Counted from the stretch's first letter, positions 18,314-45,512 are shown. The stretch is DNA of 64,000 nt from an uncultured Erythrobacter sp. (GCA_947488155.1 CANKYK010000001.1:1194439-1258438); one strand, 5' to 3'. Notes: a model not told the origin generated them from the letters alone. A program made the numbers and translations.

Positions 18314-18325
18314 TTAAACGTTTAA
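18314..18325. promoter_or_regulatory. Candidate LacI-family operator TTAAACGTTTAA (perfect palindrome)
   Basis: Lies 55 nt upstream of the 18380 ORF. Identical 12-mers occur at 25265 and 45501. Confidence 0.6.
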
Positions 18326-18379
18326 CTTATCTGAAGGGCACGCTAGAGGCAGCCCACTAAGACTAAGGGCAGACAGCAA

Positions 18380-18847
18380 TTGCATCACTCCGTCATCCTC
18401 ATTCTGTTGGGTATTCTCGTAGGCGCAAGTATCCCGCTTCAGGCAGCGGCCAATGCGAAGTTGGGCCAATCGCTTGACCAGCCTCTCTGGTCTGCTGCCA
18501 TTGCCCTGTCCATCAGCGCGCTCGTAGCCTTTTGCGCGATTGCGATAACCCGCTCGCCACGCCCTCCCCTCGACACAGCGTTTCAGGTTCCGTCTTGGTG
18601 TTGGCTCGGGGGACTATCTGGAGCTGCGTTCGTAATTTCTGGGACTTACCTGCTGCCCAAGATTGGTGCCGCTCAGTTCTTGGTGGCAACCGTAGTCGGT
18701 CAGCTAATCCTGGCAGTTGTTATTGATCATAATGGTTGGCTCGGCGTGGCAACAAAACCAATCGAACTCAATCGTTTGATCGGTCTGGCACTAGTCCTTG
18801 TTGGAACAGCGCTGGTGGTATCGACACAGCCACCGCGATCGATCTAG
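18380..18847 (+). CDS. Small DMT-superfamily membrane protein, YdcZ/DUF606-like
   Basis: 155-aa ORF with about 5 TM segments and a TTG start. The N-terminus ILLGILVGASIPLQAAANAKLG resembles DUF606. Confidence 0.55.
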   Translation: MHHSVILILLGILVGASIPLQAAANAKLGQSLDQPLWSAAIALSISALVAFCAIAITRSPRPPLDTAFQVPSWCWLGGLSGAAFVISGTYLLPKIGAAQFLVATVVGQLILAVVIDHNGWLGVATKPIELNRLIGLALVLVGTALVVSTQPPRSI

Positions 18848-18848
18848 A

Positions 18849-19874
18849 TTAGGCTGCTTGGGCTCCCGACACACGTCCGGGAAACGATCTGCGTACAGCA
18901 AGCTTCACCGGCAAGACAACGTCGTCGATCTTTGCTTCGGGATTTTCCATCCGTCGATTAAGAAGCCCAAAGGCTTCTCTTCCAAGGTCGCTGAGAGGCT
19001 GCGAGATTGTCGTCAATGGTGGGGATACGATGTCAGCAAACTGAATATCGCCGAAACCGGTTACCGCGATATCGTCGGGCACTTTCAGCCCGAGGGATGC
19101 AAGATAACGGATCGCCTCAATCGCGATCAAATCGTTTGGGCATACCAACACCTCAGCCTCAGATCTTGCCAGCCTGGCTAGAACGTTATCAGCTAGAGGT
19201 GGCGAGAAACTGTTTACCTCCTCCCAAACAACCTCAGCTTGCGGCCCAAGATTCTCTACAAATCCATCTCGCCGAAGGGACGCTGACCTGAAGTTTTCCG
19301 GTCCACGAACGAGCCCGACTTTCGTCCTCTCAGACTGATTGACCAAGCTCGCCAGCATTTTTCCTCCTACCCAGTGGTCGGAGGTAACCATATCGAATCC
19401 GTCGATTTTGGTGTCGACCAACACGGCGGGAACTGTGATGTCGGCAATCTTCTCACAATTTCCTGCGTGCGAGGGCCACCAAATAATTCCGTCGACACCT
19501 TGTTTCCCAAGACGATTGACCCCTTCAAACTCTCGCTGACTATCCCCATCGGAATCGAACAAAAGAACGCTCAGACCTTCGCCGCTCGCCGCCTGCTGGA
19601 CTGCTTTTGCAAATTGCGGAAAGAATGGGTTACTCAGGTCCGGCAAGACCAGTCCGACTGTATCCGTCTTTCCCGTCCGCATAGTTTGGGCGGACTTGCT
19701 TGGGCGGTATTGCAGCTTTTTGGCTACCGCCAGTATTCGCTCTCTAGTGGCTCGTCCGACACCTTCCCGACCGTTCAGAGCATAGGAAGCAGCGGCAATC
19801 GAAACATCAGCCTCACGCGCAACATCCTTGATTGAGGGTGGCTTGGTGCCAGTCTTCACCTTATTTTCCGGCAC
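18849..19874 (-). CDS. LacI-family transcriptional regulator
   Basis: N-terminal HTH (IKDVAREADVSIAAASYALNG...RERILAVAKKLQYRPS) followed by a periplasmic-binding-protein-like sugar-binding fold. Confidence 0.9.
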   Translation of the reverse strand: MPENKVKTGTKPPSIKDVAREADVSIAAASYALNGREGVGRATRERILAVAKKLQYRPSKSAQTMRTGKTDTVGLVLPDLSNPFFPQFAKAVQQAASGEGLSVLLFDSDGDSQREFEGVNRLGKQGVDGIIWWPSHAGNCEKIADITVPAVLVDTKIDGFDMVTSDHWVGGKMLASLVNQSERTKVGLVRGPENFRSASLRRDGFVENLGPQAEVVWEEVNSFSPPLADNVLARLARSEAEVLVCPNDLIAIEAIRYLASLGLKVPDDIAVTGFGDIQFADIVSPPLTTISQPLSDLGREAFGLLNRRMENPEAKIDDVVLPVKLAVRRSFPGRVSGAQAA

Positions 19875-19971
19875 TCTCTACTTCTCCCTACGTCCAATCT
19901 CTTACCGAACCACTCTAGTTGCCGAGTCTAGATTCGGGAACCCCGCTGGACGAAACTCGGTGAGAGAGACG

Positions 19972-21210
19972 CTACACCAAGAACATAAGTCCAGCGAGAG
20001 CGGCGCTCATGAGATTCGCCAGACTTCCCGCTAGCAGTGCACGCAAGCCAAGTGACGCGACGTTGGCTCGCTGACTAGGTGCGAGTCCGCCGAGCACCGC
20101 AAGTTGGATTGCAATGGAGCCAAAGTTTGCAAAACCGCACAGAGCAAACGTTGCGACTATGACTGATCCTGGCGAGAGGGTTTCACGAATTTGGGCCAAA
20201 TCGGCAAATGCAACGAACTCGTTCAATACAACCTTGGTCCCGAAAAGTCCGCCAACCGTCGCTGCCTCGTCCCAAGGCACGTTGAGCAAGTACATAACAG
20301 GAGCGAATAGGGTGCCGATTACCTGCTGAAAGCTGAGATCTGGATAACCAAACCAGCCGCCTATACCTCCCAAAAGCCCATTGGCGAGAGAGACCAAAGC
20401 AACGAATGCCAAGACAAGCGCCCCTACAGCTGCCGCTATCTTGAGACCCGTCTGCGCTCCTTCAGCGGCAGCCATGATGATGTTTGCAGGCTTGTACTCG
20501 TCGTCCACTCCGACGAGGTCGACTTCTGGATCCTTACCAAGTGCATCGAGTTCATCTGGGACAATGATCTTTGCCATCATGATACCACCGGGCGCAGACA
20601 TGAAGCTAGCTGACAGCAGATATGGAAGAATGTCCGTTCCGAGTACAGCGGCATAGGCAGCCAGGATCGTCCCTGCAACGCCTGCCATACCAACGGACAT
20701 CATCACGAAAAGCTGTGACCGGGTCATACTGGAAATATAGGGGCGAACCACGAGCGGAGACTCGCTCTGCCCCACGAAGATATTGGAGGCAGCAGCAAGC
20801 GATTCCACTCGAGAAATACCAGTAATGGCCTGCAGTGCCCCGCCCACCCATTTGACGATAAAGTCCATCACTTTGAGGTAATAGAGGATTGATATCAGAG
20901 TTGAGAAAAAGACAATGGCTGGGAGGGCAGCAATAGCGAAGCTCAGTCCTCCCTGATCTGCACTCGCGAGGTTGCCGAACACGAAATCAACGCCTGCCTG
21001 CGCATGACCAAGAAGAGCAGCAACGGCGTTTGCCATTGCAAGCACCACAGATTTTCCTAGCTCGGTACGCAGCACCAGAAACCCGATCGTCACTTGCAAA
21101 GCAAAAGCTGCGAGAATCACTCGCAATTTGATCGCCTTTCGGTCGACTGACGCCAGAACAGCAATACTAAAGATCACAAGAATGCCGATTAGGCCGATTA
21201 GACTTTCCAA
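19972..21210 (-). CDS. nupC: NupC-family concentrative nucleoside transporter
   Basis: 412-aa polytopic protein with NupC/CNT-like N- and C-terminal regions. Confidence 0.85.
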   Translation of the reverse strand: MESLIGLIGILVIFSIAVLASVDRKAIKLRVILAAFALQVTIGFLVLRTELGKSVVLAMANAVAALLGHAQAGVDFVFGNLASADQGGLSFAIAALPAIVFFSTLISILYYLKVMDFIVKWVGGALQAITGISRVESLAAASNIFVGQSESPLVVRPYISSMTRSQLFVMMSVGMAGVAGTILAAYAAVLGTDILPYLLSASFMSAPGGIMMAKIIVPDELDALGKDPEVDLVGVDDEYKPANIIMAAAEGAQTGLKIAAAVGALVLAFVALVSLANGLLGGIGGWFGYPDLSFQQVIGTLFAPVMYLLNVPWDEAATVGGLFGTKVVLNEFVAFADLAQIRETLSPGSVIVATFALCGFANFGSIAIQLAVLGGLAPSQRANVASLGLRALLAGSLANLMSAALAGLMFLV

Positions 21211-21322
21211 AATTTCTTATCCAAATCTTTGCTTGAGTTCGTCGACCACCTGTCAACCGATCGACGTCGCGTGCACACTATCAATGTGCTGACTAAGCCT
21301 ATCGCGGGGCCTTCCGACTGCG

Positions 21323-22867
21323 TTAACCCTGCTCGATGCCGTAGCTGCCATAGGGAATGTTGATGTCGCGCAAGGCGCTGATCGCTGCGTCAGGGACAAG
21401 AACGCTATCCACTTTTCGCGCTTGGGCGGAAAAACTGTTTCGTGTCACGTCGCATAGAAGATAGCCGTTCGCCCGGTTCTCAAAATAGAACGGTTGACCA
21501 AGACCATTGTAGAAACTGGTTTCGCTCTTGTAGCGCCCATCACCCCCACCACCGGACGAAATGGCTGCGCATACGACTTCACTAGCCAATGGAATTCCTT
21601 GCCCCTCACCCCGGACTTCACTGGCGAAGAAAGCATGGATGTCCCCACCGAGAAAGACCGTGTGACTATCAGGTCGGGATGCCACCAAATCGCACAGGCG
21701 ACTTCTAGCCTGCGGATAGGCGCCCCAGCGATCCGAGTGATAACTCGCGACGCCTTCGTGTTGTTCATAGTAGGTGTTGAGCTGAGTCGTTTGGGCTATC
21801 AGGTTCCACCTTGCACCTGCAATACCAAACCCTCTTTCTAACCAGCGCTCTTGCTGCGCTCCAAGAAGGGTTCTTGCCGGGTCATCTGAAGGGCAGCTAA
21901 CCCAAGTCGGAAACTGACCATCAGGCTCCGGGCAGGGGTGCGGGCTGCGAAATTGACGCGTGTCAAGCTGGTCCAGTTGCACCAGATCGCCGAAAACGGA
22001 GCGTTGGTATAACGCCATAGGCGAACGATTGAAGATTGCCCGCTTTCGGAGCGGCATATGTTCGTAGAATGCCTGATAGGCAGCGCGGCGTTTCTGCTCG
22101 ATCTGCTCGGCTGAAAATCCAGCAAGCGGCTGGCCTGGCTTGTAGTCGTCCCAGACCTCATGATCGTCCCAAATGACAAGCCAAGGCGCAGCGGCATGCG
22201 CCCTTTGCAAGCTCGGATCGAGTTTTGCAGCGACGTGCAGAGCTCGGTAATCATCTAGAGTATGTGGGGCAGAGACCGGGACCCTGCGTGTCGGCGAGGC
22301 CCAAGGCTCCTCATAAATGTAGTCCCCTACATGAAGAACAAAGTCGGGCTGTTGCGCTGCCACATCAGCATAAGCACCAAAGTAGCCGTCTCCGTAGCTT
22401 TGACACGAACAAAGCGCAAAGCGAAGCTTATCAAGTCGAGAGCCAAAAGGAGGAGCTGTTTTGGCGGCGCCGACCGGACTTTGCGCGTCTCGAACCAGGA
22501 AACGATAGTAGTATTGAGTTCTCGGACGAAGCCCACTGACCTCGACATGCACAGAGTTTGCTAGGGGCCTTGCCGCATATTGCGTTCCCTTTGCGACGAT
22601 CGTGCGAAAGGATACATCAGTCGCGACCTCCCACGACACCCGCACCGACTTGCCCTCAACTGCGTGCACGGTGCCAGCCGGAAAAATGCGTGTCCAGATG
22701 ACGAACCCATCCGGCAGAGGGTCTCCAGACGCCACCCCAAGCAAAAAAGGGTAATCGGCGTCAAAAAAAGAGCCCAATTCCCGAGCATGGGCTTGTGAAA
22801 TCGATGAGGGAGCACAGGCAATAGCTGCCAAGGCCCCCGTCAAGGCTGTCCTTCTATCAGTTTGCAT
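21323..22867 (-). CDS. PhoD-family phosphoesterase (alkaline phosphatase D-like), Tat-exported
   Basis: The start is trimmed to ATG at 22867 (MQTDRRTALTGALAAIA, a Tat-like signal). Metallophosphatase motifs are HVGDYIYE and WDDHEVWDD. Confidence 0.85.
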   Translation of the reverse strand: MQTDRRTALTGALAAIACAPSSISQAHARELGSFFDADYPFLLGVASGDPLPDGFVIWTRIFPAGTVHAVEGKSVRVSWEVATDVSFRTIVAKGTQYAARPLANSVHVEVSGLRPRTQYYYRFLVRDAQSPVGAAKTAPPFGSRLDKLRFALCSCQSYGDGYFGAYADVAAQQPDFVLHVGDYIYEEPWASPTRRVPVSAPHTLDDYRALHVAAKLDPSLQRAHAAAPWLVIWDDHEVWDDYKPGQPLAGFSAEQIEQKRRAAYQAFYEHMPLRKRAIFNRSPMALYQRSVFGDLVQLDQLDTRQFRSPHPCPEPDGQFPTWVSCPSDDPARTLLGAQQERWLERGFGIAGARWNLIAQTTQLNTYYEQHEGVASYHSDRWGAYPQARSRLCDLVASRPDSHTVFLGGDIHAFFASEVRGEGQGIPLASEVVCAAISSGGGGDGRYKSETSFYNGLGQPFYFENRANGYLLCDVTRNSFSAQARKVDSVLVPDAAISALRDINIPYGSYGIEQG

Positions 22868-22938
22868 AGCGCATTCCCCGCCCGGTTGTGGTTCTCGAAC
22901 TGATTGCCCGAGAACCACGGGAGAGCAAGCCAACTTGA

Positions 22939-25224
22939 TCAGAACTTGAATTCGGCTTCGACGCCCCAAATCCGGGGATCGTTGACGAAACCTGTAAGGT
23001 TGTTGAAATCGATCCCACCAATCAGATTTTCTTCATTGGTCAAGTTCCGCACAAAAGCAGCGATTTCAAAGCCATTGTCAAAATCGATGTATCCAGCGCG
23101 AAGGCCGACCTCGAAGTTGCCATTCACTTGGAATTCTTCCGATTCATAAAGGAAGAAGTTGGTGCGGCCGAGACGACTATAATCACCGAAGAGATATATC
23201 TCGCCGCCGCCAACCGGGATTGCATAGCGGCCCGTTGCCGTCAGAATTGTGCGAGGAGCCTGCGGAAACGGATTGCCGTCAATTGATGCACGCGTTGTCG
23301 TACCGACGGTCACTAGTGGATCGGTAACTGTGCAGCCCCCGCCGCAGAACGCAACGAGAAGATCATCGTCCTGAATTTCGGTATCGTTGAAACTATAGCC
23401 GAGAGACAGGTCGAGGTTGTCGACGGGGCTGAAATCGATGTCGAGTTCGAAACCCTGACCAACGCCCTTGTCCGCATTGATCAATTGGTTGAAATTCCCA
23501 AGGCCGCCGATCGCTGTAAATTGTTGGTCATCAACCTCATAGTAGAAACCAGCCAAATTGATTCTCAGTGCATTGTCGAGCAGCGAAGCCTTGACACCGG
23601 CGTCGAAAGAAATGACGTCTTCGCTATTTGCGACAGTCACGTTGTTGCTAAACACCAGACGCCCCTGGATCGACGGGCCGCGGAAGCCCGTCGCAACGCG
23701 TGAGAACAGAGTAACGCCTTCACTGATCTCATAGTTTAAAGCCAGATCCCAATTGATTGAGTCGTCTTGCGTTCTGGTTTCAGCGTTGATTGGGCCAAGG
23801 AACCCCAAGGGGCGTGTACCACGAAATACTTTTCGTTCGTCCGAATAACGAACACCGCCAGTCACAGTCAGAGCATCGGTAAGATCATAGCTTAGCTGAC
23901 CAAAAAAGGCGTACGCCTCGCTTTGCTGCGTCGTAATAGCAAGGATCGTTGGGTTCGGGTCTCCAGTACCGTTGAACGAGGCGCTATCGGCTGTGAACTC
24001 GTCCCAGAAGTAAAACGCACCGATTTGCCAGTTAAAGCGATCATTGCCGCTGTTAGAGACGCGAAACTCCTGAGTGAATTGCTCAACATCCGTGTCCAAG
24101 CTGCCAGTTTCGGAACGGAAGGGAATGAAACCCGGAAAAGAGGTCGCCCCCGTTCCGACACCGCCATCGATATCACCGACGCCGTCACTGTCTCCGACAT
24201 AATAGCCCGTCACAGAAGTCAACGTAACACTACCTGTATCGAGCTCATTACGCCAAGTTGCACCAAAGATTTCGGTATTGGATTCGTTGTTCCGACCACC
24301 GTCGAAGGCGACCTCAAAACGATCGAAGTTGTCGTTCAACTCGTTCGATCCCGGCGACAAAATATTCGCACGGAAAAGCGTCGTGGTGCCCCTGAGCCGC
24401 TGATATTGGAAAGTTAGGAGTGAAGAAAAGTCGAGAGCAGTGTCTGGCTCGAACAGCAAATGCGAACGCAATGCGACAGACGAGAACCCGCCCAGATCCG
24501 GTTCGCCATCATTGTTGCCAGCGAAGTCGGCACCAGGATTGACGTTCTCCACAAAGTCTGAGCGGCGAGTGTACTCACCGGCGACGCGAGCCGACAGGCT
24601 ATCGCTTAATGGTCCGCTAAGCGCCGCATTGAGCTTGACAGAATCGAAACGGCCATAGGAACCCGAGACATACCCCTCAAAAGACTGCGTGGGCTTCGCA
24701 GTATCGAACTTCACAATACCGGCTGGGGTATTCCGACCAAACAGCGTTCCCTGCGGTCCACGCAAAATCTCCGTTTGCGCAATATCGAATATGGGGAAAC
24801 CTTTCAGCAAGACGTTTTCGAGAACCACCTCGTCAGAAATAATCGAGACAGGCTGAGATGCAGATAGATCAAAGTCGACGTTGCCCAAGCCACGAACGTA
24901 GAACCTTGGTGCCGTGCGACCACTCGAACCCTCGACATACAGGCTAGGTACGCGTGCCGAGAGGCCGCGAATATCCGCGCCTGCATCAAGTATGGAAGAC
25001 AGCTTTTCTTCTGAAACCGTCGCAACGGAAATCGGAACGTCGAGAATATTCTGCGCACGCTTTTGGGCCGTCACAATGATAACCCCGGAATCTTCTGGAT
25101 CACCTTGTTCAGCCTCCACACTTGACTCGGCGTTCTGGGCCGATGCTGGATTAACCAGTCCAGCCGCCATCATCAACGCAGCAGCGCAAGATGAATATTT
25201 CAACAAAGCAGTTTTACGAGACAT
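22939..25224 (-). CDS. TonB-dependent outer-membrane receptor
   Basis: Signal peptide, plug region (VIIVTAQKRAQNILDVPISV), a long beta-barrel and a terminal aromatic residue (...AEFKF). The start is trimmed to ATG at 25224, which has GGGAGG 6 nt upstream. Confidence 0.9.
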   Translation of the reverse strand: MSRKTALLKYSSCAAALMMAAGLVNPASAQNAESSVEAEQGDPEDSGVIIVTAQKRAQNILDVPISVATVSEEKLSSILDAGADIRGLSARVPSLYVEGSSGRTAPRFYVRGLGNVDFDLSASQPVSIISDEVVLENVLLKGFPIFDIAQTEILRGPQGTLFGRNTPAGIVKFDTAKPTQSFEGYVSGSYGRFDSVKLNAALSGPLSDSLSARVAGEYTRRSDFVENVNPGADFAGNNDGEPDLGGFSSVALRSHLLFEPDTALDFSSLLTFQYQRLRGTTTLFRANILSPGSNELNDNFDRFEVAFDGGRNNESNTEIFGATWRNELDTGSVTLTSVTGYYVGDSDGVGDIDGGVGTGATSFPGFIPFRSETGSLDTDVEQFTQEFRVSNSGNDRFNWQIGAFYFWDEFTADSASFNGTGDPNPTILAITTQQSEAYAFFGQLSYDLTDALTVTGGVRYSDERKVFRGTRPLGFLGPINAETRTQDDSINWDLALNYEISEGVTLFSRVATGFRGPSIQGRLVFSNNVTVANSEDVISFDAGVKASLLDNALRINLAGFYYEVDDQQFTAIGGLGNFNQLINADKGVGQGFELDIDFSPVDNLDLSLGYSFNDTEIQDDDLLVAFCGGGCTVTDPLVTVGTTTRASIDGNPFPQAPRTILTATGRYAIPVGGGEIYLFGDYSRLGRTNFFLYESEEFQVNGNFEVGLRAGYIDFDNGFEIAAFVRNLTNEENLIGGIDFNNLTGFVNDPRIWGVEAEFKF

Positions 25225-25264
25225 TTCATTCCTCCCTAAGCTTTCCATACAATCAAACTTTTAG

Positions 25265-25333: not shown

Positions 25334-26344
25334 CTAAGCCACACGAATGTCGGAGCCTCCGTGCGCAGTAATCCTCTTTAGGTCCGTTTCAGGGCGAGGC
25401 CCAAAATGGCTTATCGCCTCAGAGGCACAGAGCGTTCCGATACGCAAACACTCTCGAGTTGTTGCACCTCTCAAGAACCCGGACAAGAAACCTGCAGCAA
25501 ACAGATCTCCCGCTCCTGTTGTGTCGACAACGGTAATGTCCTTGTCGGCAGGAACTTTTTCGACCTCACCTTGGCGCAGACAAGTCGCTCCGCTCTCCCC
25601 ATCTGTGCCCACGAGCACTGGGACTAGCCGCGCCAACTTCCGCAACGCCTCTTCAAATGTACCCGTCTGTGCCATGGAAATCGCTTCGAGCCGATTGGCG
25701 AAGATGATCGATATTTTCCCCGCTTGGAAAAGCGCTTCGAATTCATCACGATGTCGCTCAACCACAAACGCATCCGATAGCGTCAACGCGACTTGGCAAT
25801 CGTGCGCTAGTGCGAATTCTAAAGCAGCATTCATTGCCGGCCGCGCTTCATCCGAATCCCACAGATAGCCCTCAAGCAGGAGAATGCGCGACGCTTTGAT
25901 TGCGTCTTCATTGATGGCTTCTGTCGGTAGGGTTTGAGATGCGCCGAGAAACGTATTCATCGTCCGCTGACCATCGGGCGTCACCAAAATCAAAGAATGC
26001 GCCGTCGGCTTCCCATCAGTTGCTGGCTCCACTGTGTATTTTACGCCAGATGCGCGAATGTCATGCGAAAACACGCGTCCCAGTTGATCGTTAGCCACCT
26101 GACCTACGAATGAGCATGAGTGACCAAGATGGGCAAGACCAGCGATCGTGTTCGCGACTGAGCCCCCACTAAGCTCTCTGGCAGGCGCCATTCTGCCATA
26201 GAGTTCCTCGGCTCTCGATGCGTCGATCAATTGCATAGATCCTTTGGCGAGACCCTCTGCCTGCAAGAATTCATCCGTCGATTGGGCGATGACATCGACT
26301 ATCGCATTCCCAATGCCGATCACGTCAAGTTGCTTCTCAATCAT
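25334..26344 (-). CDS. PfkB-family kinase, adenosine-kinase-like
   Basis: 336-aa ORF. The N-terminus DVIGIGNAIVDV and the DTTGAGDLFAAGFL anion-hole motif are present, and the overall layout resembles alphaproteobacterial adenosine kinases. Confidence 0.75.
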   Translation of the reverse strand: MIEKQLDVIGIGNAIVDVIAQSTDEFLQAEGLAKGSMQLIDASRAEELYGRMAPARELSGGSVANTIAGLAHLGHSCSFVGQVANDQLGRVFSHDIRASGVKYTVEPATDGKPTAHSLILVTPDGQRTMNTFLGASQTLPTEAINEDAIKASRILLLEGYLWDSDEARPAMNAALEFALAHDCQVALTLSDAFVVERHRDEFEALFQAGKISIIFANRLEAISMAQTGTFEEALRKLARLVPVLVGTDGESGATCLRQGEVEKVPADKDITVVDTTGAGDLFAAGFLSGFLRGATTRECLRIGTLCASEAISHFGPRPETDLKRITAHGGSDIRVA

Positions 26345-26380
26345 TTACCATCCCTTCGATGACCGCTGCGCGAAAGCGCA

Positions 26381-27886
26381 TCAACGGAATGGTGGCTCTT
26401 CAAAGCTACGAAGTTTCCGGGAGTGCATTTGATCTCCCTGCCCTCGGAGCACTTCCATCGTCTCGATGCCGATCAGCATGTGCTCGGAGATCGCACGCTC
26501 ATAGAACCGGTTTGCTGCTCCGGGCAGCTTGATTTCCCCATGGAGGGGCTTGTCGGAAACGCAGAGCAATGTTCCGTAGGGAACTCGAAAACGGTATCCG
26601 TTTGCAGCTAGCGTTGCGCTTTCCATATCGATTGCGATCGCACGAGACTGGTTGAAGCGGAGAGCCTCGCTGTGAAATCTTAGCTCCCAATTACGATCAT
26701 CGTTCGTAACCACCGTACCCGTGCGCAAGCGGATCTTAAGATCAGCACCTGCATCACCGGTCACTCGCTTGGCTGCCTCAAACAGAGCTTGCTGAACCTC
26801 TGCAATCGGGGGCACTGGGACTTCGGGCGGTAAGTCCTCATCCAAGACACCGTCGAGCCTTAGATAGGCGTGAGCCAGTACGTAATCGCCAAGCCGCTGT
26901 GAATGACGAAGGCCGCCGCAGTGCCCAATCATGATCCAGCAATGCGGCCTCAGAACTGCGAGGTGATCCGTAATCGTCTTGGAGTTGGAAGGGCCGACAC
27001 CGATGTTAATGAGCGTAATACCCTGCCCGTTTTTTCCGGTCAGGTGGTAAGCTGGCATCTGGAACTTGCCGAGTTCGGAATCCAGAATCTTTTCTCTGGC
27101 ATTGGCAGTACCTTTGCCGACGCGAACACCGCCTGGAGCGACCAACTCTTCGTAGAAGTCGTCATTCTCGATCCGGTCGATCGCAAGATCGACGAACTTT
27201 TCCATGTAACGGTGGTAATTGGTAAAGAGGATGAAGCTCTGAAAATCGCTCGCCTTCGTACCCGTGTAGTGTTGCAAGCGATGAAGAGAATAGTCCGTTC
27301 TGAGGGCAGAGAACAGGTTTAGAGGTTGAGTGTCCTCAAGATCATCGCCGAGTCTGTCCAGCGTGAACTCCGAAGGCTTGTCAGCCTCGCCATTGGCGAT
27401 CTTATCATCGATCATTGCCAAGTTAGGGACAGGAAAGAACCGGGCCAATTCCGAAGGAGGCACCAGATCGGCGTCGACCCCCTTTGCGCCATCGAGAACG
27501 TAAGGGTAGGGAATTTCGGAGTCAGAAAGCGAGACGGCGAGCTCGCAATCATAGGTGTTCGTCAAAATTTCGAGTTGCGAAACTAGGTAATCACGAAACA
27601 GTTCTGGTTGAGCGATGTCGGTCTGATACACTCCAGGGCCGTTGAAGTTACCAAAGGCACGCGAGAAAGCAGGTGTCGCACCATCTGGCTGGTAGGTCAC
27701 CGTCAGTAAGGGATAGCTAAAGCGCCCAGACTTTCGTTCGTCGACATTTGGCGCCTCGCCAGATTCGACGAAAGTATCAAATGCGGCGCGGAGAGCGGTT
27801 TTGCTCTCGGCATAAAGCGCCTCGAGTTTGTCGGCAGCCTCCTCAGGTGTCGCACATTTGATGAGTGTACCGCGATCAATTGTCAT
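26381..27886 (-). CDS. amn: AMP nucleosidase
   Basis: The N-terminal regulatory domain plus nucleoside-phosphorylase-like catalytic domain (LFTNYHRYMEKF..., INIGVGPSN, MIGHCGGL) resembles Amn. The start is trimmed to ATG at 27886, which has a GGAGGA Shine-Dalgarno sequence. Confidence 0.85.
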   Translation of the reverse strand: MTIDRGTLIKCATPEEAADKLEALYAESKTALRAAFDTFVESGEAPNVDERKSGRFSYPLLTVTYQPDGATPAFSRAFGNFNGPGVYQTDIAQPELFRDYLVSQLEILTNTYDCELAVSLSDSEIPYPYVLDGAKGVDADLVPPSELARFFPVPNLAMIDDKIANGEADKPSEFTLDRLGDDLEDTQPLNLFSALRTDYSLHRLQHYTGTKASDFQSFILFTNYHRYMEKFVDLAIDRIENDDFYEELVAPGGVRVGKGTANAREKILDSELGKFQMPAYHLTGKNGQGITLINIGVGPSNSKTITDHLAVLRPHCWIMIGHCGGLRHSQRLGDYVLAHAYLRLDGVLDEDLPPEVPVPPIAEVQQALFEAAKRVTGDAGADLKIRLRTGTVVTNDDRNWELRFHSEALRFNQSRAIAIDMESATLAANGYRFRVPYGTLLCVSDKPLHGEIKLPGAANRFYERAISEHMLIGIETMEVLRGQGDQMHSRKLRSFEEPPFR

Positions 27887-35558: not shown

Positions 35559-35563
35559 CTTCG

Positions 35564-36963: not shown

Positions 36964-37508
36964 TGCACGGCCGGCTCGACACTTTGCTTCCGCAGAAGAC
37001 CATGGCCGCCCTTGCCAGGTTCCTAGGGGTGTTCGGCGAAGTCTACGAGCACTCACCTTGGATTCCAGAAGCGGCATGGCGGGAATTGAAAGAAGAGAAA
37101 TCCCCTTCTTTCGCTTTGCTCGCGCAAAAGATGGAGCAACTCGTATGCGCAGCTCCAAAAGATAGGCAATTGGCATTGCTGCGCGCGCATCCCGAACTTG
37201 CAGGACGCGCAGCTCTGGAGGGCGATCTGACCAATAGCTCTCAATCGGAACAGGCGAGTGCTGGCCTGGACCAATGCAACCCCAGCGAGCTTGCTGAGAT
37301 TAGCCGGCTAAATGCGCTCTACCAAAAGCGTTTCGGCTTTCCGTTCATCATCGCGGTGCGGGGATTGTCGCGCGCTGACGTTTTAGCATCGATGCGCAAA
37401 CGCAGCGAGCTTGGCGCTGATGAGGAGCGCGTCGAAGCTCTAAAGCAGGTCAATAGAATCGCGAAAATGAGATTGGAACAGATTGCCACATGCAAAGGAA
37501 CTTTTTGA
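36963..37508 (+). CDS. uraD: OHCU (2-oxo-4-hydroxy-4-carboxy-5-ureidoimidazoline) decarboxylase
   Basis: ATG at 36963 overlaps the puuE stop (TAATG). The motifs EHSPWI...LRAHPELAGR...SQSEQASAGL are typical. Confidence 0.85.
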   Translation: MHGRLDTLLPQKTMAALARFLGVFGEVYEHSPWIPEAAWRELKEEKSPSFALLAQKMEQLVCAAPKDRQLALLRAHPELAGRAALEGDLTNSSQSEQASAGLDQCNPSELAEISRLNALYQKRFGFPFIIAVRGLSRADVLASMRKRSELGADEERVEALKQVNRIAKMRLEQIATCKGTF

Positions 37509-38526
37509 CGTGACCGCTCCCGAGACGATTCCGACATGGGCTCAACGAGCCGTCAATTTGGCACAGCCGCGTCTCGGAGCCAAAGTGATAGGCTCAAGCG
37601 ACGATTTCTTCGCCTCCCATGATCGTCTTATCGACCCGACCGATCCTGTTTTCAAACCGGGCGTATACGACGAGAACGGCAAGTGGATGGATGGTTGGGA
37701 GTCGCGTCGAAAACGTGGTCAAGGACATGATAACTGTGTAATTGCGCTCGGCCAGCCCGGCTTTGTCTTGGGCGTCGAAGTGGACACCCGCCACTTTACC
37801 GGCAACTACGTCCCAGCCGTGGCCTTAGACGCTTGCGTCTCGAAAGAAGGCGGTGATCCGACCGGGAGTGATTGGGTTCAAGTCCTTCCGCCCAGTGCGC
37901 TATCTGGCGATCATCGTCACTTCTTCAGATTGCCGGATAGCGAGACTGCTTGGACGCACCTGAGGTTGCGAGCCTACCCCGACGGCGGCATCGCGCGTCT
38001 TCGAGTTTATGGGCATGTTTGCGGAAACTTGGACACTCACAGCAGCACAGCCCCAATAGATCTAGCAGCACTTGAGAATGGCGGAAGAGCAGTGGTCGCG
38101 AGCGATGCTCACTTCGGTGAGCTTGCGAACTTGATCGCGCCTGGCAGAGGCAAAGATATGGGAGATGGTTGGGAAACCCGTCGGCGGCGCGAACCCGGCT
38201 TTGATTGGGGTATTATCAAGCTGGCGCATCCAGGTTCGATAGAGCGGCTCGAGATTGATACGGCGCATTTCAAGGGCAACTTTGCGTTTGAGACGATTGT
38301 CTATGGCGGGATGGTTGGTGATCTGCCCGATCTCGCTCTACCCACCTTGGCGATCTACTGGCCTGTCTTGTTGCCCGCCACACGCCTCACGGCTGACGCT
38401 GTGCATGAATTCGTCGCAGATTTGCAAGACATCGGGCCAGTTGATCACCTCCGGATCGACATGATCCCCGATGGAGGGATTTCCCGGCTGCGCGCCCTCG
38501 GAACCATTGCAAAGGGACACCAATAA
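37483..38526 (+). CDS. alc: Allantoicase
   Basis: Two allantoicase repeats (...DDFFAS...DGWESRRKR... and ...[11 protein letters not shown]...). The start is uncertain: TTG at 37483, or GTG at 37510 just after the uraD stop. Confidence 0.9.
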
Positions 38527-38528
38527 TC

Positions 38529-39560
38529 ATGTCAGACAATCGTAACGGCCTCACCGCGAAACTAATCGATCAGTTACCGAAGGCAGAACTCCATCTCCAT
38601 ATCGAGGGATCGCTCGAGCCAGAACTCATGTTCGCTCTCGCGCAGCGAAACAAGATCGATATCCCGTTCAAAAACGTCGAGGAAGTGCGTGCGGCTTATG
38701 ACTTCAGCAATCTGCAGGACTTCCTCGACATCTACTATCAAGGCATGGGTGTGCTGCTGCAGCAGCAGGATTTCTACGACCTTACGATCGCCTATCTCAA
38801 AAGAGCCCATGCCGACAACGTCCGCCACGTAGAGATATTTTTCGACCCGCAAGGGCATACCGACCGAGGCATCTCATTTGATACAGCGATAGGCGGCATC
38901 CTACGCGGACTTGAGCAAGGTGAAGCGCGCCTTGGTATCTCGTACCGCCTCATTATGTGCTTCCTGCGCCACCTCGACGAGGCGTCTGCTTTCAACACAC
39001 TCGAGCAGGCGGAACCGTGGATTGACCAGATTGCCGGTATCGGTCTTGATTCTTCCGAACTCGGTCATCCCCCATCGAAATTTGCTCGGGTTTTTGGAGC
39101 GGCACGAGCGAAGGGTCTCAAGATCGTCGCCCATGCCGGGGAGGAAGGGCCGCCTGACTATGTCTGGGAAGCATTGGATGAATTGAAGGTTGACCGCATC
39201 GATCATGGCAATCGCGCTCTTGAGGACGACGAGCTTGTCCAGCGGATTGTAAATGATGGACAGACTTTGACAGTATGCCCGCTTTCAAACCTCAAACTCT
39301 GTGTAATCGACACCATCGACCAAAGCCCGGTCAAGCGCATGTTGGACATGGGTATCAAGGCGACCATCAACTCGGATGATCCGGCGTATTTCGGCGGCTA
39401 TGTGAACGACAATTTTCGTGCTGTTGCCGAAGCCCTTCCGCTTACGCCCGAACAGATCGTCGTGCTGGCGAAGAACTCTTTCACGGGCTCATTTCTCCCC
39501 GAGGAGGAAAAAGCCCAGCGCTTAGAGGAAATTGATTCTGTCGCGAAACAGCTTTCCTGA
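38529..39560 (+). CDS. Adenosine/adenine deaminase family protein (the HLHIEGS subgroup, which includes adenine deaminases)
   Basis: Metal-binding motifs [15 protein letters not shown] and NSDDPAYFG. Confidence 0.9.
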
Positions 39561-40423
39561 TGGCGAGCCAGCCAGCAGAAAGTGTTCAAAGGTCCGATCG
39601 CTATTTGGGCATCCCTGCTAGCGTCAAGTCCTTTGGCAACTTGACGCTGGATTTTGTCGCAAAACAGGGACGAACCCAGCTTCAAAAGGAACATCAGTCG
39701 GGCTGTCTTCGAGCGCGTATGATCAAGACGGCAAACCAAGAATGGCCTACTTTGGCGACCATTAACACTGCGGGCGGCTTGACCGGCGGTGACCATCTGA
39801 AACAAACCCTTTTGTGGCAGCGCAATGCCGAGGCGTGCGTGACTTCGGTTGCGGCAGAAAAAATCTATCGCTCACAATCAGGCAAAGCTCGAATTTGCAC
39901 GCATATCTCCGTCAAGTCAGGCGCTTCTGCAGAGTGGCTACCTCAGGAAACCATCCTGTTTGACGGTGCTCATCTCGACCGAGAGCTTGAGGTACATCTT
40001 GATGGAGAAGCCAATTTCGTCGGCTGCGAAGCCATCGTTTTTGGCAGATTAGCTCGAGGTGAAAGCCTGCGTACGGGTTCCATTTGCGAACAACTTAAAG
40101 TCTTCCGTGATGGCGAGTTGATCCTCTTTGATCGCACGCAGCAGTCAGGCGACTTGAACGCCTGGTTGGATCGCAATTCGTGCGGGGCAGCCAACCGGGC
40201 CAGCGGCACGATTGTCATCGCGGCATCAGAGCCGGAAGAGAAGCTCAAAGAACTGCGCGAGGCTTTGAGCGATGCCAAGGGGCTGGTTGGCGCGACGCTT
40301 GTTCGCGGCCTGGTGCACGCGCGTTTCCTTGCCAAGACTGATTGCGCGCTGCGCCACGACATGAGCCTTGCTCTGATTGCAGCTCGCGGCGGTCATGACC
40401 TTCCTCGTAACTGGAGTTGCTGA
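39560..40423 (+). CDS. ureD: Urease accessory protein UreD
   Basis: Position immediately upstream of ureABC, plus a [12 protein letters not shown]-type motif. Confidence 0.8.
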
Positions 40424-40425
40424 CT

Positions 40426-40728
40426 ATGAGACTGTCGCCCAGAGAGAAGGACAAAATGCTTATCTCGGTTGCAGCCATGGTTGCGCAGCGACGCCTGGAG
40501 CGTGGCGTCAAGCTGAATCACCCTGAAGCCATCGCGCTGATTTCGGATTTCGTTCTGGAGGGCGCGCGAGATGGCACTAGCGTGGCAGACCTCATGGAAG
40601 CGGGCGCGAATGTCCTGACGGTTGATCAGGTGATGCCGGGAATCGCGGAAATGATCCACGATGTTCAAGTTGAAGCCACGTTTCCCGACGGCACCAAACT
40701 CGTAACCGTCCACAGGCCGATCCGATGA
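40426..40728 (+). CDS. ureA: Urease subunit gamma
   Basis: [39 protein letters not shown]... is the canonical UreA sequence; 100 aa. Confidence 0.95.
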
Positions 40729-41033
40729 TTCCGGGACAACTGATCCCTGCCAACGGGCATCTGGTGCTCAATGCACGTAGTGATGCCGTGCAGGTGACTG
40801 TCTGTAATCTTGGCGATCGCCCGGTTCAGGTGGGCAGCCACTACCATTTCGCTGAAGCGAATGCGGGTCTCGATTTTGACCGTGCCAAAGCCTGGGCGTG
40901 TCGTCTGGATATCCCAGCAGGCTCAGCCGTTCGATTTGAGCCGGGGCAGACGCGCGAAGTCGATCTGGTGCCCTATGCGGGCGATGAAATCGTGTGCGGT
41001 TTCAGGGGATTGACCAGAAAGGAACTGGGCTGA
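40725..41033 (+). CDS. ureB: Urease subunit beta
   Basis: MIPGQL...[18 protein letters not shown]. It overlaps ureA (ATGA). Confidence 0.95.
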
Positions 41034-42742
41034 TGCCGTTCAAGATATCGCGCCATGACTACGCGCATATGTTTGGCCCCACAAAAGGCGATCGGCTGCG
41101 GCTCGCTGATACCGAACTCATCATCGAGATCGAGAGCGATGCGACCGTCTATGGCGATGAAATCAAGTTTGGTGGCGGCAAGGTTATCCGTGACGGAATG
41201 GGCCAGAGCCAACGAACCAACGCTCAAGGTGTTGTCGATACCGTCATTACCAACGCCATCATCATTGACCATAACAAGGTGATCAAAGCAGACATCGGTA
41301 TCAAAGCCGGGCGGATCCACGCAATTGGCAAAGCGGGTAATCCCGATACACAACCGGGCGTCGAAATCGTCGTCGGACCGGGCACTGATGTCATCGCAGG
41401 CGAAGGCAAGATCGTGACTGCCGGGGGGGTCGATTGCCACATCCACATGATCTGTCCGCAACAAGTTGACGAAGCGGTCGCAAGCGGGATCACAACCTTT
41501 GTTGGAGGCGGCACTGGGCCGTCTACCGGAAGCAACGCCACGACGTGCACGCCGGGGCCCTTCCATATTGAGCAGATGCTGCGCGCGGTTGACGGGCTGC
41601 CGATCAATTTTGCGATTGTTGGCAAAGGCAACAGCAGCCGGCCTGAAGCGCTCATCGAGCAGATCGAGGCCGGGGCAGCTGCGCTCAAACTGCACGAAGA
41701 TTGGGGCACGACACCTGCCACAATCGATTGCTGTCTCACAGCTGCCGATGATCACGATGTGCAGGTTATGCTCCACACCGATACCCTCAATGAAAGTGGT
41801 TTCGTCGACGACACAGTCGCCGCGTTCAAAGGGCGCACGATTCACGCTTTTCATACCGAGGGCGCTGGCGGTGGGCACGCGCCCGACGTCATCAAGCTGG
41901 CGGGCCTACCCCACGTCATTCCCTCGTCGACTAACCCGACACGGCCCTTCACCGTCAATACGATTGAAGAGCATCTCGACATGCTCATGGTGTGCCATCA
42001 CCTCGACCCCTCTATTGCAGAGGACATTGCCTTTGCAGAAAGCCGCATTCGCAAGGAGACGATTGCGGCAGAGGACATCTTTCACGATGTCGGCGCGATA
42101 TCGATCATCTCTTCCGACAGCCAGGCGATGGGCCGTGTCGGCGAAGTGATTACACGCACGTGGCAGACTGCCGACAAGATGAAGCGGCAGCGTGGTCAGC
42201 TCGAAGGTGAGACTGGCGATAATGACAACCTGCGGGTTCGACGGTACATTTCCAAATACACGCTGAACCCGGCTATCGCCCAAGGGTTGTCGGCCGAGAT
42301 CGGATCGGTTGACATAGGCAAGCTTGCCGACCTCATCGTGTGGGATCCCGCCTTCTTTGGAGTCAAACCTGATCTAGTTGTCAAAGGCGGAACCATCAGC
42401 TTTGCCGCTATGGGCGACCCCAACGCCAGCATACCAACACCGCAACCGATGCATGGTCGGCCCATGTTTGGAATGTGTGGCAAGGCGCTATCCAGCTCAT
42501 CGCTCACATTCGTCTCACAGGCTGCATTCGCAGGTGGAGTAAAACAAAGGTTATCGCTGGAAAAAGACGTCGTTGCCGTGAGCAAATGCCGAGATATCGG
42601 TAAGAAAGACATGATCTTAAACGATGCCCTCCCAGAAATCGACGTAGACCCCGAAACTTACGAAGTGCGCATGAACGGCGAGCTTGCGACTTGCGAGCCG
42701 GCGAACATCGTTCCGATGGCCCAACGTTATTTCCTATACTGA
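41033..42742 (+). CDS. ureC: Urease subunit alpha
   Basis: [27 protein letters not shown]..., [22 protein letters not shown]. The start overlaps the ureB stop (TGATG). Confidence 0.97.
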
Positions 42743-42745
42743 GCT

Positions 42746-43231
42746 ATGACCGAACCCACTCTCATCAGCGCCATTGTTGAAAACGCATTCCAGGCCAGTG
42801 ACAGTGTTGCGCTCGATTACGATGCTCGCAGCAAACGCCGTGCGGTTTGGACCACAGCGAGCGGTAAGAAAATTCTGCTCGATCAGGAGCGACCCACAAC
42901 GCTTCGATCTGGTCAGGGCTTCGAGCTACCAGACGGCTCGGTTGTACGGATTGAAGCGGCTGAAGAAGACCTCATTGCCATCGCGACACCAAGCCTAAAA
43001 CTTCTGACACAACTGGCGTGGCATCTGGGAAATCGGCACTTACCCACCCAGGTAATAGCTAGCATTGATGGTGTTAGCCTCCATATTAGGGCCGACCACG
43101 TCATCGAGGAAATGGTCGTAGGGCTTGGCGGGCAAACTCGCAGAATTCGGGCTGGTTTCGATCCTGAGCGCGGAGCCTACGCTCGTGATGCGCGGCATAA
43201 AGATCATCAGGATGGTCATGCGCATGGCTAA
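42746..43231 (+). CDS. ureE: Urease accessory protein UreE
   Basis: AWHLGNRHLP motif and a His-rich tail ([11 protein letters not shown]). Confidence 0.85.
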   Translation: MTEPTLISAIVENAFQASDSVALDYDARSKRRAVWTTASGKKILLDQERPTTLRSGQGFELPDGSVVRIEAAEEDLIAIATPSLKLLTQLAWHLGNRHLPTQVIASIDGVSLHIRADHVIEEMVVGLGGQTRRIRAGFDPERGAYARDARHKDHQDGHAHG

Positions 43232-43955
43232 TCAAACAGATGATCGCAGCTGGCTCTACAGCACTCTCAGTTGGATGTCGCCCTCTTGGCCAATTGGCGC
43301 TTTTGCCTATTCGAGCGGGCTCGAATGGGCTCATGAAGCGGGCTGGCTTTATGATGCCAATGCGGTGGCGGAATGGATCCGCGATAGTCTCGACTGCGGT
43401 AGTCTGTCAGCGGATGCTGCCTGTTTTGTCCGATGCTTTAAACCATTGGACGGAAATGCTGGTGCTATCGAGTTCAAGGAACTGGCTACTTTTTCGCTTG
43501 CTGCTCAGATTTCGCGAGAACGCTCCATTGAAACGGCTGCGCAGGGCGATGCTTTCCGCGCCATCGCCATAAACGCTAACAGGCAGGTGCACCCCGGCAA
43601 GATCGCTGCCTACGAACGGGCGACAAGCAGTATCGAAAAGGGAAAACTGCCTTATCCGGTAGCAGCTGGCGTATTGTTCGCTATTTTTAGAGTTCCAGTA
43701 GAAGCGGCGCTGCTGGCTTTTCTGCACGCCGCAGTTGCCAACCTACTGTCAGCTTCCCAGCGCATCGTGCCGCTAGGACATACTGATACTCAAGTGCTTG
43801 CCTCCACTTTGCAGCATAACGTCCAGCATGCCGTCGACATCAGTCTCGAACGACGCTTGCTTCCCATCGAGCAGGCATTAGCTAGCGCCAATCTCGCTGC
43901 AGAAATTGCCTGTATCCAACATGAAACGCAATACACGAGGCTTTTCAGGACATGA
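43224..43955 (+). CDS. ureF: Urease accessory protein UreF
   Basis: The start is trimmed to ATG at 43224. The motif is [18 protein letters not shown]. Confidence 0.85.
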
Positions 43956-44587
43956 CCAACAAGAGGCTCTCACCACTCAGAGTAGGGATCGGCGGTCCCG
44001 TCGGAACGGGCAAGACCGCGCTCATGGACGCCCTTTGTAAACGGCTCCGCAATCAGCTCGAAGTCGCTGCCATTACAAATGACATTTATACCAAAGAGGA
44101 TGCAGAGTTTCTGCTTCGCGCAGGCTCCCTCGCAGCAGACCGTATCGTGGGTGTTGAAACAGGTGGTTGTCCCCATACGGCGATCAGGGAAGATGCATCG
44201 ATGAACCTTGCTGCCGTCGAGGACATTACCGCTCGCCATGATGGGCTCGACCTCATCCTCATTGAAAGCGGCGGAGACAATCTGGCCGCGACATTCAGCC
44301 CGGAATTGGCTGACCTCACAATCTACGTCATTGATGTGTCGGCGGGCGACAAAATTCCCAGAAAGGGTGGTCCGGGTATCACACGGTCGGATCTTCTCGT
44401 CATCAACAAGACCGACCTTGCGCCCTTGGTGGGAGCGGATCTGGACGTGATGGACCGGGACGCCCGGCGCATGCGTGGTCAGCGGCCATTTGTTTTTGCG
44501 AACATCAAAGCGGGAACCGCTGTTGAGGAGATTGCGAATTTCCTCATCGAAAACGGCTGCCTGCCAACTGAAGGAGACGACTTGTGA
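43952..44587 (+). CDS. ureG: Urease accessory GTPase UreG
   Basis: P-loop [16 protein letters not shown] and NKTDL. Confidence 0.95.
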
Positions 44588-44976
44588 AGAAGCTGACGCC
44601 AATGAAAACTGGGGTGACGATTGCCTTGCTCAGCATGTCGGCAAGCGGGGCTGCGCATGAAGGCCATCAGCTCGCTGATCATACTCTCGTGAGCGGACTC
44701 TTACATCCTCTAACCGGTATCGCACATCTTGTCGGACTACTGGGTTTAGGCGGCGTGATTGGGGTTGCGAGCGCGCTATGGTTGCGAGAGGAATCAGATC
44801 TGCTCCCGATTCTGTTACTCTCGGTGGCTTGTCTTGTCCTGTCAGTGGGTAAGGCCAATGGAGCCTTTGCTATAGGTTTCTTTGCATCAAGCCTCTTGCT
44901 GTCGGGCGTCGCTTACGCGCTTGGCAAATTCCTGACTAAGAAGAGTTCAGGTTGGCAACGATCCCGCAAGTTCTGA
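44584..44976 (+). CDS. HupE/UreJ-family (nickel-related) membrane protein, short form
   Basis: The GTG start overlaps the ureG stop. A signal peptide is followed by AHEGH...[12 protein letters not shown]. At 130 aa it is shorter than typical family members. Confidence 0.55.
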
Positions 44977-45471
44977 TGCTTCAATACACACTTTCTGATC
45001 ATTGAGGAGGAGCACCTCCTCGCAGTCTTCTTCTCGTGCAACTCGGTCGATAACTAGGAAATCACTAGTCTCGCCGAGCGCCAAACAAAAATGGTGCCAA
45101 GTGCCAGCCGAAAACTGGACACCCTGGCTGCCCTTCGCAGCGAACACGCGAATGCTATCGCTATCAAGATCGCCAGCAGGTGCGACGACCACCAGAAAGG
45201 GATTGCCACTAAGTGGCACAAAGGCTTGCGAACCCTGTCGATGCCTTTCCATTGTCTCGACGATGAAAGGCAAGGAGCGTGGTTTGGCACGGTAAATATG
45301 GATTGCCGCGTGGCCGGACCCGCGCCCGCAATCAGGCCGCGCAAGTTCTACAAACTTCAGACACGTGCCGTTGTTGATGATGGAAGCGGACGATTCATCA
45401 CCCGCTTCAATCACGTCTCCAAAGGGGTGAAACGCATCATCGGTCAACTGCTCTACGGGAATTGCCTTCAT
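44947..45471 (-). CDS. allA: Ureidoglycolate lyase
   Basis: 174-aa ORF. The N-terminus ...LTDDAFHPFGDVIEA... and a cupin-like body resemble AllA. Confidence 0.8.
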   Translation of the reverse strand: MKAIPVEQLTDDAFHPFGDVIEAGDESSASIINNGTCLKFVELARPDCGRGSGHAAIHIYRAKPRSLPFIVETMERHRQGSQAFVPLSGNPFLVVVAPAGDLDSDSIRVFAAKGSQGVQFSAGTWHHFCLALGETSDFLVIDRVAREEDCEEVLLLNDQKVCIEASELAGSLPT

Positions 45472-45500
45472 CTACTTTACCTCTTTCCATTCATTCTTGC

Positions 45501-45512
45501 TTAAACGTTTAA
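45501..45512. promoter_or_regulatory. Candidate LacI-family operator TTAAACGTTTAA
   Basis: Perfect palindrome in the divergent allA / tkt region, 30 nt from allA and 39 nt from tkt. Confidence 0.6.

Follow-up and report, generated by a model that had tools for sequence, protein, structure and literature searches.

A recurrent palindrome as the predicted operator of a LacI-family regulator of purine catabolism on an Erythrobacter genomic island

The 64,000-nucleotide (nt) stretch GCA_947488155.1 CANKYK010000001.1:1194439-1258438 from an uncultured Erythrobacter sp., referred to here as the window, carries a block of genes for uptake and breakdown of purines, a gene for a LacI-family regulator (18849-19874), and several copies of the 12-nt palindrome TTAAACGTTTAA. 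This arrangement raises the question of whether the palindromes are the operators through which that one regulator controls the entire block. Purines and nucleosides make up a sizeable pool of marine dissolved organic nitrogen, and, to our knowledge, the regulation of their use in marine Alphaproteobacteria is little characterized. The comparisons outlined below make it very probable that five palindromes, designated O1 to O5, are operators of the island-encoded regulator, which is predicted to bind and repress at each of them.

Allowing up to two mismatches, TTAAACGTTTAA has exactly five matches in the window. Three copies are perfect (O1, O2, and O5, beginning at 18314, 25265, and 45501) and lie inside 27 kb, while O4 at 35990 (TTAAACGTTTCA) departs from the palindrome at one position and O3 at 28004 (TTAATCGTTTCA) at two. 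Dinucleotide-preserving shuffles give an expectation of 0.63 matches per window, none of 100 shuffles reaching five, and base composition predicts an exact 12-mer only 0.0013 times per 64 kb, or ~0.07 times per 3.5 Mb. An 18-nt weight matrix, made from 20 sites in related loci and including the window's own five, yields a bimodal distribution of scores, with the five sites at 21.6-28.0 bits and the runner-up position in 64 kb at 9.2 bits; shuffled sequence contains no site at 14 bits or above. The general motif, T[T/G]AAACGTTT[A/C]A, is weakly flanked by a/t and extends to aaNT[T/G]AAACGTTT[A/C]ANtt or, in IUPAC form, aaNTKAAACGTTTMANtt. All five sites are intergenic, falling within the 900 nt (2.8%, with curated start codons) of the 18.3-50.7 kb block that are non-coding. 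The flanks of the five copies have no mutual similarity, and a dispersed non-regulatory repeat was rejected as their origin on this ground. A first-pass annotation of the window had placed the palindrome at the same five positions, had described every copy as intergenic and near a first gene, had seen no further close match, and had named the gene at 18849-19874 as the only one for a LacI-family regulator. Each of these points is borne out by the scans, which recover no second LacI-family gene in the window, and Pfam and NCBIfam agree with its gene calls.

The surroundings of the sites are those expected of the family. LacI-family operators are, as a norm, even palindromes centered on CG, with most situated 30-140 nt before a start codon (PMC4052901). 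The consensus has the central CG and a length within the 14-22 nt range of LacI/GalR operators, and the likely start codons are 29-117 nt away from the operator edge. In the divergent regions, O3 lies 117 nt from amn (ATG 27886) and 48 nt from the DUF2608 gene (ATG 28064), O4 lies 60 nt from hiuH and 47 nt from puuE, and O5 lies 29 nt from allA and 38 nt from tkt (GTG 45551). Every operator thus has at least one start codon 29-60 nt away and must therefore overlap or directly follow a promoter. A promoter would not fit into this short spacing downstream of the site, so binding would occlude the promoter or block early elongation. The proposed mechanism places a regulator dimer on each operator, where its hinge helices, with Met65 in the position of the leucine lever, would be inserted at the central CpG; at O3, O4, and O5, a single site would serve two divergent units, and a small-molecule inducer from the pathway would free the repressor. 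Activation or dual regulation at some promoters, or the use of a co-repressor in the manner of PurR instead of an inducer, is a different way in which the regulator could act on the same sites. Dual regulators do exist in the LacI family, as in Cra/FruR and the predicted PckR (PMC4052901), and the distance between O3 and amn is longer than the others. Such a mode of action is nevertheless very unlikely given the tight spacing at most of the operators, and substrate-induced repression is the typical arrangement in LacI-family regulons of catabolism (PMC4052901).

The assignment of the sites to the island's own regulator, by which the first-pass annotation had tied the catabolic block together, gains its support, at the level of predicted binding, from the comparative footprinting of orthologous LacI regulators that the annotation had itself proposed. 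Window proteins were mapped onto orthologue loci, given here with the prefix L, and sites were scored by weight matrix; the motif recurs at orthologous promoters in independent genomes. With regulators 55-66% identical to that of the window, the same motif precedes the TonB receptor, ydcZ, amn, hiuH/puuE, and allA. L003, L007, and L012 retain the gene order amn-pfkB-TonB receptor-(hydrolase)-nupC-regulator/ydcZ. High-scoring sites precede the TonB receptor and ydcZ in each of these loci and also amn in L003 and L007; in L012, the contig starts within amn. In L005 and L010, the regulator gene adjoins the xdh/puuD cluster, and sites are found in the hiuH/puuE spacer and ~30-40 nt before allA. 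The L009 locus has a site in the spacer between the regulator gene and a divergent TonB receptor gene.

Each operator of the window has counterparts in these loci. Equivalents of O1 stand upstream of ydcZ in L001, L003, L007, and L012 as the sole invariant block there, and O2 is likewise the sole invariant block among the upstream regions of TonB receptors aligned from five loci. Between one and three sites upstream of amn in L001, L003, and L007/L008 correspond to O3, the spacer in L001 and L003 being shared with a divergent DUF2608 gene. Sites corresponding to O4 occupy the equivalent divergent hiuH/puuE spacer in L005, L010, and L014, accompanied by the same hiuH-xdh-puuD gene string, and the equivalent of O5 before allA in L005 and L010 is again the only invariant block. 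Invariance of this kind within spacers that have otherwise diverged is the usual criterion for a phylogenetic footprint. In L003, L005, L007, L009, L010, and L012, the motif lies before orthologous genes and stays with the regulator gene despite differing gene order, the neighbors of the regulator gene being xdh/puuD in L005 and L010 and the TonB receptor and nupC genes in the other four. This tracking of the regulator by the motif through varied gene orders argues for a cognate pair.

A metagenome scan added 80 further loci, and the motif accompanies the LacI-family gene over 90 loci. The L014 regulator, at 42% identity, is encoded with puuD, allA, xdhCBA-hiuH, and puuE-uraD-alc; this locus has three strong sites, and sites are located at puuD and hiuH/puuE. 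At 36% identity, the regulator of L056 is associated with six strong sites, located before iunh-nupC-regulator (iunh encoding a nucleoside hydrolase), before a TonB receptor and phytase-like gene, before PRAI-like-pfkB-5'-nucleotidase, and before uraD-hiuH-puuD. This locus (7179-19523), from another metagenome, is adjoined by an IS240-type transposase. A large group of regulators at 39-44% identity, from assorted environmental metagenomes, has a divergent TonB receptor, nucleoside hydrolases, and PfkB kinases as partners; a few of its loci have lower-scoring sites with the variant core GAAACGTTACA.

The same loci provide insight into how the regulon may have been assembled. Gene content in L005, L010, and L014 suggests a shared core of hiuH-xdh-puuD, puuE-uraD-alc, allA, and glcB together with uptake genes. 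The unit of L005 that is divergent and equivalent to that of tkt-tal-glcB in the window has glcB without tkt-tal. In the island, the core seems to have been enlarged through insertions, with the puuE unit gaining adenosine deaminase and urease genes and the glcB unit gaining tkt-tal. The TonB receptor of the window is only 26-28% identical to the receptors of L003, L007, and L012, versus 38-40% to those associated with the 39-44% regulator group, and the position of PhoD is taken in the closest loci by a protein of the metallo-beta-lactamase fold. As judged from these gene comparisons, loci have exchanged their TonB receptor and periplasmic hydrolase but kept the operator position.

The regulator itself (341 residues) belongs to the LacI/GalR family by domain architecture, with a helix-turn-helix domain, hinge helix, and effector domain. 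PF00356 is matched at residues 14-59 (50 bits; cut-off 27), residues 70-331 match PF13377, PF00532, and PF13407, and alignments to RbsR, CcpA, and PurR of the Protein Data Bank (PDB) are full length, with E values of 1e-29 to 1e-38. No NCBIfam equivalog cut-off is reached by the protein. Membership in the RbsR group was rejected (NF047341, 198.8 bits versus 382; NF007743, 144 versus 531), as was membership in the CytR (134 versus 436 bits) and UriR (142.5 versus 550 bits) groups. None of the loci of the 55-66% identical orthologues contains rbsA or rbsC. The first-pass annotation had likened the palindrome to the PurR box of E. coli, and this comparison holds for the core AAACGTTT, a trait of the family, with no sign of kinship to PurR itself. 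Orthology to PurR was rejected on the basis of a score of 126.5 bits against 501 for NF007979, 24% identity, placement in a different major clade, and the nature of the eight predicted units, all of which serve uptake or catabolism and none biosynthesis.

A maximum-likelihood tree places the regulator within a group of 50 sequences (support 94/87), the gene contexts of which, where known, involve nucleosides, purines, or a TonB receptor; one member also has a ribose ATP-binding cassette (ABC) gene nearby. The sister groups are RbsR-like regulators of ribokinase and sugar-ABC operons, and E. coli PurR, RbsR, and CytR fall in the other major clade. In the collection of plasmids, no close homologue of the regulator was found, the best being a 40% identical regulator of a Thermus rbs operon that was taken as outgroup. 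The recognition helix SIAAASYALNG and the hinge, including Met65, are invariant or nearly so in 16 orthologues of 53-66% identity. An alignment of 94 homologues shows that the "leucine lever" position of the hinge, residue 65 in the window protein, is Met in 20 of 20 homologues with nucleoside context and in five of six with purine context, versus Leu in all 19 with ribose-ABC context; E. coli PurR and RbsR also have Leu there. A natural Met lever is plausible, because the L54M variant of PurR binds DNA almost as well as the wild type, with a loss of just 0.38 kcal/mol (PMC2577325). The hinge Met may constitute a diagnostic signature of the clade.

Several observations weigh against the assignment of the sites to the island's regulator. 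The identical palindrome TTAAACGTTTAA occurs in L002 upstream of the own gene of a 41%-identical regulator encoded with a ribokinase and sugar-ABC operon, and similar sites precede other regulators of ribose operons in L072, L081, and L083, such that a paralogue could share or compete for the sites. The five palindromes might then be LacI-family operators bound mainly or additionally by an RbsR-like protein encoded elsewhere in the genome, with the regulator of the island redundant or of other specificity. This alternative is unlikely, however, as regulator gene and motif travel together across at least six rearranged loci and the recognition helix is invariant in orthologues. In addition, the site in L009 separates the TonB receptor gene from a divergent gene for the regulator, and in distant homologues, such as that of L040, a site is found just upstream of the regulator gene. 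In the window, no operator directly precedes the regulator gene, and its autoregulation needs read-through over gaps of 97 and 112 nt. A generic scan for sigma-70 promoters and terminators returned fewer promoter-like matches than in shuffled sequence, none of them convincing, and the geometry of operators and promoters is accordingly drawn from distances only. The 50-member clade has only moderate support in the tree, and the sequence was found in none of the RNA runs, with part of it present in only three marine metagenome DNA runs. Binding of the five sites by the island's own regulator remains the preferred reading, and the regulator is probably autoregulated because it is encoded by the last gene of the O2 unit.

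The predicted regulon comprises ~31 genes in eight transcription units (Table 1), the operon extents being deduced from gene arrangement. In unit 2, all genes run in the same direction with gaps of 97-112 nt that contain no operator, and the 12 genes of unit 6 have overlapping or abutting reading frames. Assignment of amn rests on 704 bits against a cut-off of 307 for the NCBIfam AMP nucleosidase equivalog, and that of adenosine deaminase on 539 bits against 419. The ydcZ gene adjoins the regulator gene with an operator of its own in five further loci, six with the window. Conservation of the operator before the gene for this YdcZ-family membrane protein hints at a role in purine- or nucleoside-related transport.

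Table 1. Positions of the predicted operators, the predicted transcription units, and the island features in the window
Feature	Position	Strand	Remarks
Operator O1, TTAAACGTTTAA	18314..18325	none	54 nt upstream of ydcZ; 28.0 bits; outer edge of shared catabolic block
Operator O2, TTAAACGTTTAA	25265..25276	none	40 nt upstream of TonB-receptor ATG at 25224; 21.6 bits
Operator O3, TTAATCGTTTCA	28004..28015	none	divergent amn/DUF2608 region; 24.3 bits
Operator O4, TTAAACGTTTCA	35990..36001	none	divergent hiuH/puuE region; 26.0 bits
Operator O5, TTAAACGTTTAA	45501..45512	none	divergent allA/tkt region; 25.1 bits
Unit 1, under O1: ydcZ-like DMT membrane protein	18380..18847	+	Pfam PF04657
LacI-family regulator, 341 aa, last gene of the TonB-receptor string (unit 2)	18849..19874	-	Pfam: helix-turn-helix and periplasmic-binding-protein-like effector domain
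Unit 2 (with regulator gene), under O2: TonB-dependent receptor (22939-25224), PhoD phosphatase (21323-22969), NupC nucleoside transporter	19972..25224	-	Pfam; NCBIfam for PhoD
Unit 3, under O3: AMP nucleosidase (amn), PfkB-family kinase	25334..27886	-	NCBIfam, Pfam
Unit 4, under O3: exported DUF2608 protein, phosphoribosyltransferase	28064..29549	+	Pfam; signal-peptide-like N-terminus
Unit 5, under O4: hiuH, xdhA, xdhB, xdhC, puuD (HIU hydrolase, xanthine dehydrogenase, membrane urate oxidase)	29572..35929	-	Pfam
Unit 6, under O4: puuE, OHCU decarboxylase, allantoicase, adenosine deaminase, ureDABCEFG, HupE/UreJ-like	36049..44976	+	Pfam, NCBIfam
Unit 7, under O5: ureidoglycolate lyase allA	44947..45471	-	Pfam
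Unit 8, under O5: transketolase, transaldolase, malate synthase G, unknown 129-aa reading frame	45551..50697	+	Pfam
ParB-like N6/N4 DNA methylase	10671-12002		Pfam
Two tandem tyrosine integrases	15650..18054	-	Pfam; directly outside shared block
DUF2924 gene, large serine recombinase (51517-53211, +), tRNA-Thr (53422-53496, -)	50967..53496	mixed	right-hand end of low-G+C island

Taken together, the products of these units would form one route that turns extracellular nucleotides or nucleosides into ammonia, CO2, malate, and pentose-phosphate intermediates. Uptake across the outer membrane would depend on the TonB receptor, with dephosphorylation in the periplasm by PhoD and the DUF2608 protein and import of nucleosides by NupC. 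The PfkB kinase and Amn would provide phosphorylation and AMP cleavage, with Tkt and Tal using the ribose 5-phosphate. Deamination and ring oxidation would fall to Add, XdhABC, and PuuD, after which HiuH, the OHCU decarboxylase, PuuE, and Alc would lead to allantoin, allantoate, and ureidoglycolate. AllA would then release glyoxylate and urea, and the route would also include urease and malate synthase. A purine nucleoside or related ribose-bearing compound is tentatively favored as inducer on account of the RbsR-like effector domain and the association of the clade with nucleosides; a purine base is the alternative.

The first-pass annotation had called such a regulon unusually broad, and this is true in a relative sense. 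A survey of 1,288 LacI-family regulons found 93% to have no more than 20 genes and 69% to control one or two operons, and defined as "global" those with more than 15 genes in at least seven operons and several pathways (PMC4052901). The predicted regulon passes the numeric part of this definition. By function, however, the units form one coherent, extended catabolic route, contained as far as seen within one island.

Mobility of the block, also claimed in the first-pass annotation, is upheld by several lines of evidence. The G+C content is 0.51-0.59 (mostly 0.53-0.55) over ~10-54 kb versus 0.59-0.61 in the flanks, recombinase genes stand at both ends, and a tRNA-Thr gene marks one border. A second genome, a metagenome-assembled genome (MAG) likewise labeled uncultured Erythrobacter (L001), has the block at 93.2% nucleotide identity over window positions 18313-29864, the extent covered by its locus, in a different context. 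The features by which genomic islands are recognized, namely composition, recombinases, a border tRNA, and occurrence in another genome with different surroundings, are thus all present, and this combination of sequence features lends good support to joint transfer of the block and its regulator. Homology to L001 stops at 18313, one base outside O1 (window 18313-18325; L001 11550-11562), and O1 therefore marks the edge of the shared cargo. Beyond it, L001 has a different integrase (~30% identity) and a tRNA-Leu, and the window has its tandem integrases.

The coincidence of O1 with the end of homology, like the ParB-like N6/N4 DNA methylase and several recombinases encoded on the island, could also be accommodated if the palindrome were not a transcription-factor site at all, and were instead a dispersed repeat, a target of recombination or methylation, or a chance AT-rich palindrome retained in spacers. 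This possibility is extremely remote in view of the dissimilar flanks of the copies, the recurrence of the motif at orthologous promoters despite spacers that are otherwise unalignable, and its tracking of a LacI-family gene over 90 loci. The reading of the palindromes as operators is retained.

Genes for recombinases, methylases, or terminases flank the orthologous clusters in L005, L007, L010, and the P0014 contig. A ParB-like N6/N4 methylase, DUF5681, terminase fragments, DUF2924, and a large serine recombinase recur beside orthologous purine clusters (L005 1-7600; L010 11133-11744), which suggests that these clusters are recurrently tied to one type of phage-like or integrative element. 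In the search for an attachment site, the stretch 9-18.4 kb yielded no direct repeat of the tRNA-Thr end. A perfect inverted match of 15 nt links 53431-53445, in tRNA-Thr, to 15545-15559, just downstream of the tandem integrases, in the wrong orientation for a classical attachment repeat.

Among the described regulators closest to this system is AduR, the adenosine-utilization regulator predicted by RegPrecise in Rhizobiales (RL3877, Atu4420), which is likewise a LacI-family protein with local control of purine-nucleoside catabolism in Alphaproteobacteria. AduR is 34% identical to the window regulator over 287 residues and falls in the same major clade of 58 sequences (99/99), where the placement of its long branch is uncertain. 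AduR differs in having one site per genome (four regulons, four sites; PMC4052901 supplement), a hinge Leu instead of Met, and its own recognition helix, VSAATVSNALSG, and is probably not an orthologue. HpxR, a xanthine-utilization regulator predicted by RegPrecise in Ralstonia/Cupriavidus, shares family and the predicted control of xanthine catabolism; at 28% identity, however, it forms a very long basal branch of the tree, and its regulons have single sites (three regulons, three sites).

E. coli PurR resembles the window regulator in family, in a purine-related signal (predicted for the window regulator), and in an operator, GCAAACGTTTGC, with the AAACGTTT core (PMC3159470). PurR arose from an RbsR-like ancestor (PMC4052901), and the present clade also adjoins RbsR-like regulators. 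Biosynthesis is the target of repression by PurR, for which hypoxanthine or guanine acts as co-repressor, whereas the window system would control catabolism, and the outer half-site bases are GC in PurR operators versus TT/TG in those of the window. RbsR-type repressors provide the best sequence neighborhood in both NCBIfam and the PDB, the 38-41% identical regulators of rbsK and sugar-ABC operons forming sister groups, and at least one of them (L002) has an identical operator core. They differ in their targets, ribose ABC transporters and ribokinase, and in having Leu at the hinge. At the level of locus organization, the CUT loci of Xanthomonas and aquatic bacteria (PMC1790865) similarly bring together a TonB receptor of the outer membrane, degradative enzymes including periplasmic hydrolases, a transporter of the inner membrane, and a LacI-type regulator of the locus. 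The CUT loci were described for carbohydrates, whereas the predicted substrates in the window are nucleotides or nucleosides and the locus also encompasses complete purine mineralization.

Palindromic operators bound by a LacI-type repressor are a textbook type of switch. The regulator clade and the regulon were not found in the open-access literature, which yielded no paper on such a regulon in Sphingomonadales, and for that order the RegPrecise LacI survey names only BglR and MalR among the entries listed. The balance of the comparisons tilts somewhat toward a wider reading, in which the regulator would represent an undescribed and widespread LacI-family clade, derived from RbsR, independent of PurR and CytR, and characterized by the hinge Met. 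Its members would sense a nucleoside or purine and couple TonB-dependent scavenging of extracellular nucleotides or nucleosides to complete purine mineralization. In the present Erythrobacter-like genome, the regulator would travel with all its operators and targets as one unit. A recipient of such a transferable unit would gain a ready-regulated pathway from nucleic-acid debris to ammonia and central carbon.

What is gained concerns annotation, marine nitrogen ecology, and the hinge-Met signature of the clade, and not regulatory principle. The result is a compact regulatory model of one repressor, five operators, and eight units, from which roles can be predicted for the TonB receptor in nucleotide or nucleoside uptake and for the YdcZ-family and exported DUF2608 proteins in purine scavenging. 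The weight matrix of 18 nt, used with the hinge-Met signature, should make it possible to annotate the regulon in many metagenomic genomes.

Two minor features were also noted. An Rfam scan of the window for riboswitches or other RNA control returned just the tRNA and one match antisense to urease. The latter, to 5_ureB_sRNA (41189-41471, minus strand, 77.8 bits), lies inside the gene for the urease alpha subunit and probably reflects conserved urease coding sequence instead of a small RNA gene. The amn 5' leader contains, at 27905-27930, between O3 and the likely ATG at 27886, a G+C-rich hairpin, CGCGGCCGTCCGCG, bounded by an A-run and a T-run, which resembles a terminator when taken on the plus strand.

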